64,000 nucleotides of DNA, from assembly GCA_037310415.1 (NCBI GenBank), contig CP147780.1:224001-288000 (forward strand), in the 5' to 3' direction. The notes under the pieces were generated by a model. It saw only the letters and a program-made list of their open reading frames with translations. It had not been told where the DNA came from and searched no databases. Source of the DNA: Candidatus Atabeyarchaeum deiterrae. GTDB taxonomy: Archaea; Asgardarchaeota; Atabeyarchaeia; Atabeyarchaeales; Atabeyarchaeaceae. Shown here piece after piece: positions 23,721-26,504 of this stretch. Within the stretch, counting starts at the first letter, position 1; every line of letters begins with the position of its first letter. A program made the position numbers and the translations under genes.

Positions 23721-24956
23721 TTAGAATCTGACTGGAGCAAAGAACAAGATCATAGGACCGAGTTTGAGTTTTCTTCTTTTCGATTTGACTTCACTCGTTA
23801 TTGCCAACAGAGTGTTTAGATGCTCATCCAGGCTGGAGACGGTTGCGTCTCTGTAAAGTGCGATTGTGTTTATCTTCTCTTCTCGTACGAGAAACTGTAT
23901 TATGATCGGGTTAATTGAATAGTCATGTTTCCAAGGGTTATTTGGTGTTAACACAATCCTTCTGCTTTCCGGGATTAGCTCTACTTTTGTTCTTGCCATG
24001 GCGACTTGATCGACTGTTTCTGCTGAGCCTTTGTCGTCTTTTCCCTCGAAGTGTTCTAGTGTTCTGCCAAGTATTCCCAGATTCTCAAGGTTCCCCGAAA
24101 TAGATTGGTTTGCCTTGGCTTCCTGTTCCTTGCTGGGCAATACTTTCAGGCACATGTATAGAGGCACGTTGTCTTCCTCTAGCCTTCTTGAATACACCTC
24201 GAGAGTCTTGCGGGCAACTTCAGAACATTTCTCGTTACTACTGACGACCCTTAGTGCTGGGCCGAATATTGTTGACGTGTTCTCTGGAGGTTTTGAATTA
24301 GATGCTGAATATGATGGTTGGAATCGTTCTTTTATCTCCTCGAGAGCCGTCTCATATACGTGCGCTGATCCCATCACGGTGAGCAAGTCTCCACGTGAAG
24401 AAGTGCCACCGAAATGCGCAGCGACTTCTGTCAGGAATACAGCATAACTTCCTGAGACATCTTCAGACCATGCCCTTGCAATATCGTTGCTTCGGATATA
24501 TTCGACTAGGTTCACCTTCCCTTTTATCCGCTCAAACATCACTATGTTTATGCAGGGCGGATCTGGACTCTTTATATCCTCAACTGGATTCCAGAACTGT
24601 GCGAAAGCGGATGAAGCAGTGTTCTTCAACGCATCACTTATTTGTTGTATTTGGTTGAACCCGAATCTTTTCCTCATGCACCAACCATAAGTGTATGTGT
24701 GCTCACCTCTCTCCGCCGTAGAGTACTGAGGCCAGTATTGCTGTTCGATAACTTGGGGAGATAAGCCAATGTAATCTTGTGGAGTGATGCTCCCCGTTCT
24801 CCAGTCAGTTAGATGAGCAATTCCACAGAGACATTCAAGCGTTCTTTGTCCCTTTCTTTCAGTGTATGCGATTGTTCCTTTCTCAACGACGGTGTTGACG
24901 ATCGAACGCCATGCCGTATCGACGTTTCTGTTTCTGGTTAAGAATGGTCCATACAT
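23721..24956 (-). CDS. Tandem-domain thymidylate-synthase / dCMP-hydroxymethylase-fold protein
   Basis: Domain 1 has YTYG, WNP, PPC135, RSND...D166 and SAHVY. Domain 2 is degenerate (VDQV..SRR..NNP..QFLVR..YR). Confidence 0.82.
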   Translation of the reverse strand: MYGPFLTRNRNVDTAWRSIVNTVVEKGTIAYTERKGQRTLECLCGIAHLTDWRTGSITPQDYIGLSPQVIEQQYWPQYSTAERGEHTYTYGWCMRKRFGFNQIQQISDALKNTASSAFAQFWNPVEDIKSPDPPCINIVMFERIKGKVNLVEYIRSNDIARAWSEDVSGSYAVFLTEVAAHFGGTSSRGDLLTVMGSAHVYETALEEIKERFQPSYSASNSKPPENTSTIFGPALRVVSSNEKCSEVARKTLEVYSRRLEEDNVPLYMCLKVLPSKEQEAKANQSISGNLENLGILGRTLEHFEGKDDKGSAETVDQVAMARTKVELIPESRRIVLTPNNPWKHDYSINPIIIQFLVREEKINTIALYRDATVSSLDEHLNTLLAITSEVKSKRRKLKLGPMILFFAPVRF

Positions 24957-24971
24957 CTTCTACTACCTCAT

Positions 24972-26504
24972 TTATTGAACCGTCTCTTCGCCAAGCAGAC
25001 GATAGTAAGGATGTGGTGGACGCGGCAAGACACCCATAGTCTTAAGAGCCTCGTCTGCAATGGCAGCTTCCGCTCCAGCCACATCGGGGAAGATGTTTTC
25101 CGCGTTCTTAATAGGTCCATATAGGTTCAAGTCAATTCCGAAGATTGTAGGAAGGGTGTAATCAAAGTCGAATCTGATGTCGTCGTGGTTTTTCACTGAA
25201 GAGTGAAGGTTGTGAATGCCTATGGCTGTGGGAAAACCGAATTGATTTTTCAAGATCCATGCCTGCTCAAGTGCAGACAGCGCACCTCCTCCGAGTCTTG
25301 GCACTCCTGGATCGATTATTGGCTTCTCAACGATATTCTTGAAAAAGCTCAAAGTCTCGCTTGTCTTCTTGTCTGACTCCTCAGCGGATTCCGCGTAGGA
25401 CAAGCAAATGGCATACTTTACTCCTCCGATCTCTTTGAGACTGCCGCGTTCCTTGTCGCTTTTAGTGATTATTGAGTTGTAGATTGTTCTATCCTCGATT
25501 CCAATGTCTTTGGCGAGTCTCAAACCGTGAATCCGAGCTTCAGCAAAGCTGGAGTCAACTATAATCGGTGAATCAGTCTGATCAACCGCGAATAGGAGGT
25601 ACTGTTCGATTGCCTCGACGGTTTGTCCGACGATGTGAACCATAACCGGAATGCTATAGTGTAATGAAAGTTCGTCTTGCTTGTGGATTAGCTCGGCTGC
25701 AACTCTCCTGTCAAAAGTCCCAGTCTTCACGTCTGAGACTATCTTGTCTTTTGTGTAGAAAATCGTACCAGCCATGACAGTTGGGTACTGTCCTCTATAT
25801 CCACCGAGCTTAACCCCGCATAGGTCATAGACTTGAAGCTCTGTCCCAGTAAACGTGAACATAGAGCCCAGCGCGTTTCTGAGTCTCCTCTTGTCTACCT
25901 CGGTCCTCTTCACGAACGCAGAAATCGCCCTTTTCCAGTCGTAGATTTCTTTCCGCTCAGGGGGATAAATCGGTTCCATTTCAAGAGGCTTCAGGTCCGA
26001 ACGGGCGAATAGTTCGTCTATCTTCACTCCAATTTTTTCGAGCGAAGTTTCATCGCTAAGATCTTCAACAGAGGCTATTTGCTGTTGGAAGCGCTTGACA
26101 TATTCTGATGGATTAGCCCCTCTAAAATACGTTGGAAGAAGTGTGGGAATAGTCCCTTGGCTACCTATCACCGTGTATTTGTCGTCTATCCCATTTGAGT
26201 GAAGCGCTTTGAATGTCTGCCCAGGCTCGTGACCTTTAACGCGTTGACCGCAGACCACGACATACCTGATCTCCGGGTTTGATATTATGTTTTGAATTAT
26301 CTTAGCAAGACCCTCGTTTTCAGTTTCGCAGAATCCAGCTATGGCCACGCGATCCGCTCTAGTTTTGATGACTTTGCCCGGAAGGTCGTAGGATCCGCAA
26401 GTCATCACTGCTATCTTGGCTCCTGGGTTACTGACGACATAGTCGCCGGGCAGCGGGGGCCACCTTGTTGCTTTCTTTGTATTATGAACCTGCTTTTCTT
26501 TCAT
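24972..26504 (-). CDS. Soluble MtrA-MtrH fusion (corrinoid protein + methyl-H4MPT methyltransferase)
   Basis: MtrA: WPPLPGDYVV, TENEG..IISNPEIR, CG..VKGH92EPGQ, RFQQQ. MtrH: GG..G.YPTVMAGTIFY, G.FDR, IYNSI, PIIDP, YGPI.NA. No TM anchor. Confidence 0.88.
   Translation of the reverse strand: MKEKQVHNTKKATRWPPLPGDYVVSNPGAKIAVMTCGSYDLPGKVIKTRADRVAIAGFCETENEGLAKIIQNIISNPEIRYVVVCGQRVKGHEPGQTFKALHSNGIDDKYTVIGSQGTIPTLLPTYFRGANPSEYVKRFQQQIASVEDLSDETSLEKIGVKIDELFARSDLKPLEMEPIYPPERKEIYDWKRAISAFVKRTEVDKRRLRNALGSMFTFTGTELQVYDLCGVKLGGYRGQYPTVMAGTIFYTKDKIVSDVKTGTFDRRVAAELIHKQDELSLHYSIPVMVHIVGQTVEAIEQYLLFAVDQTDSPIIVDSSFAEARIHGLRLAKDIGIEDRTIYNSIITKSDKERGSLKEIGGVKYAICLSYAESAEESDKKTSETLSFFKNIVEKPIIDPGVPRLGGGALSALEQAWILKNQFGFPTAIGIHNLHSSVKNHDDIRFDFDYTLPTIFGIDLNLYGPIKNAENIFPDVAGAEAAIADEALKTMGVLPRPPHPYYRLLGEETVQ

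Follow-up and report, generated by a model that had tools for sequence, protein, structure and literature searches.

What does an enzyme of the thymidylate synthase (TS) fold methylate, and from which donor, if it carries the aspartate of cytosine enzymes and is the only ThyA homolog of its genome? The question is raised by the DNA analyzed here, a stretch of 64,000 nucleotides from the archaeon Candidatus Atabeyarchaeum deiterrae (positions 224,001 to 288,000 of contig CP147780.1), hereafter the window. The gene in question encodes P0001, a protein with two TS-fold domains in tandem. The gene upstream of it encodes P0002, a fusion of the corrinoid protein MtrA with MtrH. A preliminary description of the window had named Asp166 of P0001 as a cytosine-specificity residue and had proposed deoxycytidine monophosphate (dCMP) or cytidine monophosphate (CMP) as the substrate. 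The residue is confirmed here. The MtrA-MtrH gene, which always accompanies the Asp, was absent from that description, and the pairing offers a different reason for the Asn-to-Asp change, namely a change of one-carbon donor. To our knowledge, thymidylate is synthesized in two ways, by ThyA and by ThyX. In these cells, the thymine for DNA is probably made by an undescribed route.

An Aspartate Invariant in One Asgard Clade

In the translated open reading frame (ORF), the specificity motif reads RSNDIARAWSED, and Asp166 stands 11 residues after Arg155. Asp166 shares a column with Asn177 of E. coli ThyA and with Asp179 of the T4 dCMP hydroxymethylase gp42, as had been proposed, and no gap follows the RSxD motif in any of three alignments. 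These are a phmmer comparison with PDB chains, a MAFFT alignment (A2) with E. coli ThyA and T4 gp42 taken from genome records, and the match to Pfam PF00303; the equivalence is one of aligned sequences and not of residue-level superposition. At the specificity motif, the MAFFT alignment reads RSCDVFLGLPFN in E. coli and RSNDVVFGFRND in T4. The L. casei chains 1njc and 1njd rank third among the PDB sequence matches found by phmmer, and the printed alignment has Asp in the same column.

The orthologs agree. Asp is invariant across the 15 aligned close relatives (alignment A1) and is present in 32/32 members of one Asgard clade, whereas Asn is found in 110/110 of the remaining archaeal-type TS domains of the tree. 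This tree, built by maximum likelihood from 142 TS domains, places the Asp rows in a single clade (SH-aLRT 100) and needs one change to account for them. Njordarchaeia and Atabeyarchaeia supply about 20 close relatives with 62–69% identity. Relatives at a greater distance, with 41% identity, occur in metagenome-assembled genomes (MAGs) labeled Lokiarchaeota; all of these proteins have Asp. The wider family, which consists of short archaeal TS and of three-domain MtrA-like/TS/DUF4346 proteins, has Asn throughout. Since Asp is invariant in the close relatives and in the clade and Asn is found in all other archaeal-type domains, Asp166 is not a product of chance.

In the TS family, Asn at this position goes with uracil and Asp with cytosine (PMC8670742, which cites work of 1992 by Hardy and Nalivaika, by Liu and Santi, and by Graves et al.). 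The rule has been shown for MilA, BcmA, and the T4 enzyme (PMC5175136). On this rule, a cytosine nucleotide was a legitimate inference.

A Corrinoid Protein Gene Paired with the Asp-Type TS

In all 10 loci read, an MtrA-MtrH gene lies immediately upstream of the Asp-type TS gene and is co-oriented with it. The Asp-type tandem TS is found in 18 of 301 Asgard genomes, which belong to five families (Atabeyarchaeia, Freyarchaeia, and three more), and the full-length MtrA-MtrH fusion is found in exactly the same 18. Comparison of nine module loci gave no third conserved gene beside TS and MtrAH, and in none of the loci compared is the fusion flanked by mtrB-G.

The MtrA domain of P0002 has the cobalt-ligand His and its Glu partner. 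His92 in its GHEPGQ motif falls on the QGH-motif His of 5laa, the MtrA homolog of M. fervidus (117 bits). In MtrA of M. marburgensis, the cobalt ligand is His84 and its partner residue is Glu54 (PMC4915002). The GHEPGQ His and the Glu of a CETEN motif in P0002 align with these two positions, as shown on PDB 5laa, and both residues are kept in 9/9 Asgard fusions. Of 50 MtrA-like domains that are fused to an Asn-type TS, in turn, 48 have lost the cobalt-ligand His. Because this domain of the Asn-type proteins is mostly without the His, a true corrinoid partner goes with Asp. The tandem architecture and the pairing with MtrAH arose together with the Asp, and only once.

The three-domain MtrA-like/TS/DUF4346 proteins of DPANN archaea are the closest relatives outside the clade, and their TS core is likewise linked to an MtrA-fold module. 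However, they carry Asn, join all their parts in one chain that includes a small pterin-binding-like tail, and have neither MtrH nor a second TS domain. Their genomic context in DPANN gave nothing informative. Like the methanogen MtrA-H complex, the methyl-tetrahydromethanopterin (methyl-H4MPT):coenzyme M methyltransferase, P0002 has the His/Glu pair of MtrA and a full MtrH domain. Unlike that complex, it is a soluble fusion without a membrane anchor, and the acceptor proposed here is a nucleotide instead of coenzyme M. Prediction of a complex between TS (alignment A1) and the MtrA domain (alignment A3, residues 1–190) gave a score of 0.01, which speaks neither for nor against a contact.

The MtrAH fusion itself has been described in these archaea, which have the H4MPT methyl branch and lack the full Mtr complex; the acceptor of its methyl group was reported as unknown (PMC11291895). 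A search of that paper found no mention of thymidylate. The pairing gives the orphan fusion a candidate for the acceptor left open there. More generally, no description of this arrangement was found in the literature searched, nor any of DUF4346 or of a link between MtrA or DUF4346 and TS. PMC9931769 counts Asgard thyA genes, and a search of it found no mention of dCMP, fusion, or methanopterin.

One Predicted Active Site in a Tandem TS-Fold Chain

P0001 belongs to the TS family, with 55.8 bits against PF00303 (Thymidylat_synt; cut-off 24.3). This is the sole Pfam family matched; the MtrA-like and DUF4346 domains are not part of the chain. The best NCBIfam model is TIGR03283, the short methanogen-type TS, with 97.3 bits, which is below the equivalog cut-off of 174.55. 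The AlphaFold2 model of P0001 has a pTM of 0.78 and a mean pLDDT of 70.7, and most of its C half lies at pLDDT 81–93, with one 10-residue block at 65. Foldseek places TS chains (probability 1.00) and T4 dCMP hydroxymethylase on top of its matches to the model.

The two halves divide the functional residues between them. In the N half, Cys135, Arg155-Ser156-Asn-Asp158, Asp166, and His199-x-Tyr201 are all invariant (alignment A1). The N half is without the Arg-Arg pair and has TASSAFAQFWNP at the corresponding place. The C half is without the Cys, RSxD, and HxY, and retains Ser331-Arg332-Arg333, which align with Ser125-Arg126-Arg127 of E. coli. In ThyA dimers, the Arg-Arg pair of each subunit reaches into the active site of its partner. 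Hence P0001 should be a single-chain pseudo-dimer in which the C half lends Arg332/Arg333 as a phosphate clamp. Because the pair sits in the dead C half and the catalytic residues in the N half, one active site per chain is expected. Methanogen-type ThyA (TIGR03283/PF00303) shares with P0001 the fold and the motifs RSxD, AW, HxY, and YTYG, together with the nucleophile of the PPC motif, and it is likewise the sole TS homolog of its host. It differs in its invariant Asn, in being a homodimer whose subunits lend each other the Arg-Arg pairs, and in not being obligately paired with an MtrA-MtrH gene.

The same residues bear on the sugar of the substrate. The signature of deoxyribose is present in Ser156, which follows the motif Arg, and in Arg332 of the lent pair, both invariant. 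MilA and BcmA, which share the TS fold and the Asp with P0001 but prefer CMP, have Ala and Lys at the Ser167 and Arg126' positions, namely Ala176 and Lys133' for ribose (PMC5175136). CMP was considered as a substrate and was set aside on this signature; a ribonucleotide would be an unlikely substrate for an enzyme with these residues. Of the two nucleotides in the preliminary description, dCMP remains reasonable by the residue rule and CMP is unlikely on account of its sugar, and the genome context described below is against plain dCMP.

A few further sequence features belong to the clade. Residues 53–93 (window 24680–24800) are strongly conserved and clade-specific; His48, Asp51, Gly64-Leu65-Ser66, and Gln73-Tyr74, for example, are invariant. 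Residues 53–93 are modeled with pLDDT <50 and are placed where ThyA has its folate-binding helices. Trp92-Cys93-Met94 after YTYG is invariant and restricted to the Asp clade.

Thymidylate Supply in the Host Genome

The genome of the window (G000) is a single 2.76-Mb contig of 97% completeness. P0001 is its only ThyA homolog, and no ThyX and no thymidine kinase were found in it; the search for thymidine kinase covered this one genome. In the families f1, f7, f15, and f18, four of those that carry the Asp-type TS, ThyX was found in 0/18 sampled genomes, including the complete G012 and G037, and a TS homolog was found in 16/18. P0001 must be on the path to thymidine monophosphate (dTMP), since it is the sole ThyA homolog and neither ThyX nor thymidine kinase was found. 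A role in making a modified base and nothing else, one of the options first raised, is unlikely for the same reason.

The known genes of the pathway fit with deoxyuridine monophosphate (dUMP) as the substrate. G000 encodes a canonical dCTP deaminase (TIGR02274, 227 bits) and also contains a second gene of the dCTP deaminase (DCD) family and a dUTPase-like gene. Genes of the DCD family are present in 5/5 other Asp-type genomes tested, and thymidylate kinase is present in 6/6 Asp-type genomes. Because DCD, the dUTPase-like gene, and thymidylate kinase are all present, dCTP can be converted in sequence to dUMP, dTMP, and dTDP with no step missing, provided that P0001 takes dUMP.

A path through 5-methyl-dCMP, in contrast, needs at a minimum a deaminase and a supply of dCMP, neither of them known. 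No deaminase of the cytidine deaminase (CDA) fold, which binds zinc, was found in four of the six Asp-type genomes (G000, G012, G006, and G075). The deaminase match in G037, a complete Freyarchaeia-type genome, is TadA-like, and a ComEB-like dCMP deaminase gene was found in G040 only. The proposal that P0001 makes a dTMP precursor that is then deaminated thus holds as to the path to dTMP and lacks the deaminase in most of these genomes. The search for dCMP and dCTP deaminases that had been suggested gave the canonical dCTP deaminase in G000 and no CDA-fold enzyme there. We also considered the second DCD paralog of G000 as a specialized 5-methyl-dCTP deaminase, and rejected it. Its distribution does not follow that of the Asp-type TS, since orthologs with 52–59% identity are present in many Asn-type genomes and f7 and f18 have only weak matches (30–36% identity) that are consistent with canonical DCD.

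Substrate and Methyl Donor

The evidence on the base is split: the residue rule points to cytosine and the genome context to dUMP. One textbook rule must break here, either "Asp means cytosine" or "cells methylate dUMP". Both outcomes, dUMP with a corrinoid donor or dCMP to 5-methyl-dCMP to dTMP, would be new. They concern a set of Asgard lineages, including three complete genomes, that is without ThyA or ThyX in the usual form. Asgard archaea are the group closest to eukaryotes.

From the observed fold, motifs, residue equivalence, clade-specific Asp, gene pairing, and pathway inventory, we infer which donor and which substrate are used and what Asp166 does. The module may well be a thymidylate-forming system, a reading that we hold tentatively, in which MtrH loads the cobamide of MtrA from methyl-H4MPT and the TS-fold enzyme methylates C5 of Cys-activated dUMP. 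As the known roles of the MtrA and MtrH families suggest, MtrH would first move the methyl group from methyl-H4MPT to the MtrA-bound cobamide. Cys135 would add at C6 of a 2'-deoxypyrimidine 5'-monophosphate and thereby activate the base. The methyl group would then pass from methyl-cob(III)amide to C5 of the base, as the gene pairing suggests. The physiological substrate would most probably be dUMP, giving dTMP directly. Asp166, together with the acidic residue 165, may represent base activation adapted to a new and weaker methyl donor instead of a switch to cytosine. That the gene is so strictly paired with one for a genuine corrinoid methyl carrier suggests a reaction without any dihydropterin product.

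Several points weigh against a corrinoid-dependent methylation of dUMP. We know of no TS-fold enzyme with a methyl-corrinoid donor, and the role given to Asp166 on dUMP is argued from chemistry alone. All characterized natural Asp-type enzymes of the family (T4 dCMP hydroxymethylase, MilA, and BcmA) use a cytosine nucleotide (PMC5175136). The mutants L. casei N229D (1njc/1njd) and E. coli N177D, which have the same Asn-to-Asp substitution as P0001, are dCMP methylases, and phage TS genes with Asp track modified cytosine in DNA (both in PMC8670742). The 150 best matches contain just one other short archaeal TS with Asp, P0131, which is encoded on a virus-like contig. RNA from the module is limited to a single 198-nt contig of a wetland metatranscriptome, which matches window positions 25456–25652 in mtrAH without mismatch; the same run gave nothing on the TS gene, and a second run gave no match. 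Expression of mtr was reported as weak (PMC11291895).

The ThyA mutants were made in the laboratory from folate-dependent homodimers, in which the Gln165/His147 hydrogen-bond network is retained. The Asn/Asp rule may not transfer unchanged to P0001, because the archaeal family is without both residues. The phage enzymes differ as well. T4 gp42 (PDB 1b49, 6a9a) and the phage dCMP methylases share with P0001 the Asp, the Ser and Arg signature, HxY, the catalytic Cys, and the Glu of the LE.Y helix, and Foldseek gives an E-value of about 6e-8 for T4 gp42, at an identity of only 18%. They are homodimers encoded in viral genomes, alongside a host TS and genes for dCTPase and glucosyltransferase, whereas P0001 is chromosomal, corrinoid-coupled, and the only TS homolog. 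A separate source of dTMP and a viral or secondary-metabolite context, which would be expected of a cytosine enzyme, were not found for P0001.

The alternative that survives best is a deoxycytidylate C5-methylase, which we consider unlikely but worth weighing. Here, Asp166 would protonate N3 of dCMP as in the T4 enzyme, and a deaminase yet to be identified would convert 5-methyl-dCMP to dTMP; the methyl donor could be the MtrAH cobamide or methylene-H4MPT. The Asn/Asp rule is valid for all characterized members of the family and for the mutants (PMC5175136, PMC8670742), and the strict division of Asp and Asn between the clade and the other archaeal-type domains indicates a shift in function. 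Ser156/Arg332 and His199/Tyr201 suit a deoxynucleotide, and the presence of thymidylate kinase makes dTMP an intermediate. Nevertheless, the CDA-fold deaminase is missing from the four genomes named above and the ComEB-like gene is confined to one. Neither a third gene beside the module in the nine loci nor a DCD paralog that tracks the Asp-type TS fills the gap, and a source of dCMP was not identified. Furthermore, the canonical dCTP deaminase and the dUTPase-like gene are retained, and their sole known purposes are to supply dUMP and to remove dUTP. A more specific form of this alternative is rather doubtful. It would be a third kind of thymidylate synthesis in which the methyl group goes from methyl-H4MPT through the MtrA cobamide to Cys-activated dCMP. 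5-Methyl-dCMP would then be an obligatory intermediate in the cell. An unknown enzyme would deaminate it to dTMP, and it might also find its way into DNA as 5-methylcytosine.

It is about as doubtful that P0001 is a classical archaeal TS that uses dUMP and methylene-H4MPT and oxidizes the pterin. MtrAH would then be a co-regulated neighbor in one-carbon metabolism, and Asp166 would be tolerated or locally compensated. Such an enzyme would agree with a sole TS homolog that has a complete supply of dUMP and a dTMP kinase, and the nearest curated family, TIGR03283, is the methanogen-type TS. Asn229 of L. casei TS reportedly contributes to catalysis and is not essential, as Liu and Santi are said to have found in 1993. 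However, adjacency in 10/10 loci and co-occurrence in 18/18 genomes, over five families and at 40–69% identity, exceed what co-regulation would give, and the invariance of the Asp speaks against a neutral variant. The 97 bits against TIGR03283 fall short of the cut-off, and the conserved insert of residues 53–93 stands in place of the usual cofactor-binding region.

It is very improbable that P0001 is a cellular dCMP methylase or hydroxymethylase for modified cytosine in DNA or a metabolite, with thymidylate coming from an unrecognized enzyme or from uptake: the Asp and the viral Asp-type precedent (PMC8670742; P0131) would fit, but the complete genomes G000, G012, and G037 would be left without either known class of thymidylate synthase (G000 also without thymidine kinase), the gene lies in a housekeeping context that is syntenic in relatives, and no glucosyltransferase, dCTPase, or other modification-pathway gene is a neighbor.

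Features of the Locus and Related Homologs

The features of the module are collected in Table 1. The span 24354–24554, on which the preliminary description focused, corresponds exactly to the stretch from the Cys135 codon through the Tyr201 codon. The surrounding genes encode arginyl-tRNA synthetase, an aminotransferase, Nep1, the RNase P protein Rpr2, S19e, and eIF6, and GC content is flat over the window. A housekeeping region with no phage genes nearby, as originally described, is therefore the right picture.

Table 1. Features of the TS and MtrA-MtrH genes, with positions in the window.
Feature	Positions	Strand	Basis
Tandem TS-fold protein P0001, 411 aa, stop codon included	23721..24956	minus	ORF list, Pfam PF00303, NCBIfam TIGR03283, Foldseek
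C-terminal degenerate TS domain, about residues 228–411	23724..24275	minus	Weak PF00303 match (E 0.1); aligns with TS core (A2)
Ser331-Arg332-Arg333, phosphate-binding pair	23958..23966	minus	ESRRIVLTPNNP aligned with E. coli DSRRIIVSAWNV; invariant in A1
N-terminal catalytically equipped TS domain, about residues 1–225	24282..24956	minus	Invariant catalytic motifs
His199-Val-Tyr201, binders of the sugar 3'-OH	24354..24362	minus	Aligned with TS His207/Tyr209; role from PMC5175136
Asp166 codon GAT, base-specificity position	24459..24461	minus	Column of E. coli Asn177 and T4 Asp179
Cys135 codon, catalytic nucleophile, PPC motif	24552..24554	minus	Column of E. coli Cys146 and T4 Cys148; invariant in A1
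GAGGT ribosome-binding site, within the 15 nt that separate the mtrAH stop codon from the TS start codon	24965..24969	minus	Sequence read
MtrA-MtrH fusion P0002, 510 aa, upstream and co-oriented	24972..26504	minus	Pfam MtrA 134 bits, MtrH 190 bits
MtrA-domain His92 codon, cobalt ligand, motif GHEPGQ	26229..26231	minus	Aligned with His of QGH motif in 5laa

Other TS homologs were seen along with the Asp clade. P0131 (L064:4743-5477) has the motif RSNDMLEAWACD. Its contig consists of small co-directional ORFs, including genes for Dam, an N6/N4 DNA methylase, and an HNH nuclease. The contig looks like an archaeal virus or a mobile element, which may modify cytosine.

The MAG G041 has two high-scoring PF00303 matches of 155–157 bits (L010:1354-2082 on contig 209, and G041:C76:43745-44416). 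The one of these proteins that was read has Asp at the specificity position (RSNDLLYGLPYD), and G041 has ThyX too. This homolog could be a viral or acquired enzyme that modifies dCMP.

In f9, which with 68 genomes is the largest of the Asgard families sampled, the TS is of the Asn type and 335–350 aa long, with the motif RSRDLFRAWEAN (L047:5645-6661 in G227; also L046, L048, L049, and L050). TIGR03283 matches it over residues 11–311, which implies that about 100 aa are inserted in its N-terminal part. The flanks read at these loci contain no MtrAH gene.

Two Freyarchaeia-type MAGs, G046 (L065:3023-3802) and G087 (L066:2240-2869), have an extra divergent TS homolog beside the Asp-type module. 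These homologs score 111–115 bits against TIGR03283, and the motif read in the G046 copy has Asn. The complete genome G037, of the same genus, has the module and no extra TS homolog. In the family f15, about 4 kb separate the gene for thymidylate kinase from the MtrAH/TS module (G040:C6:269534-275597).

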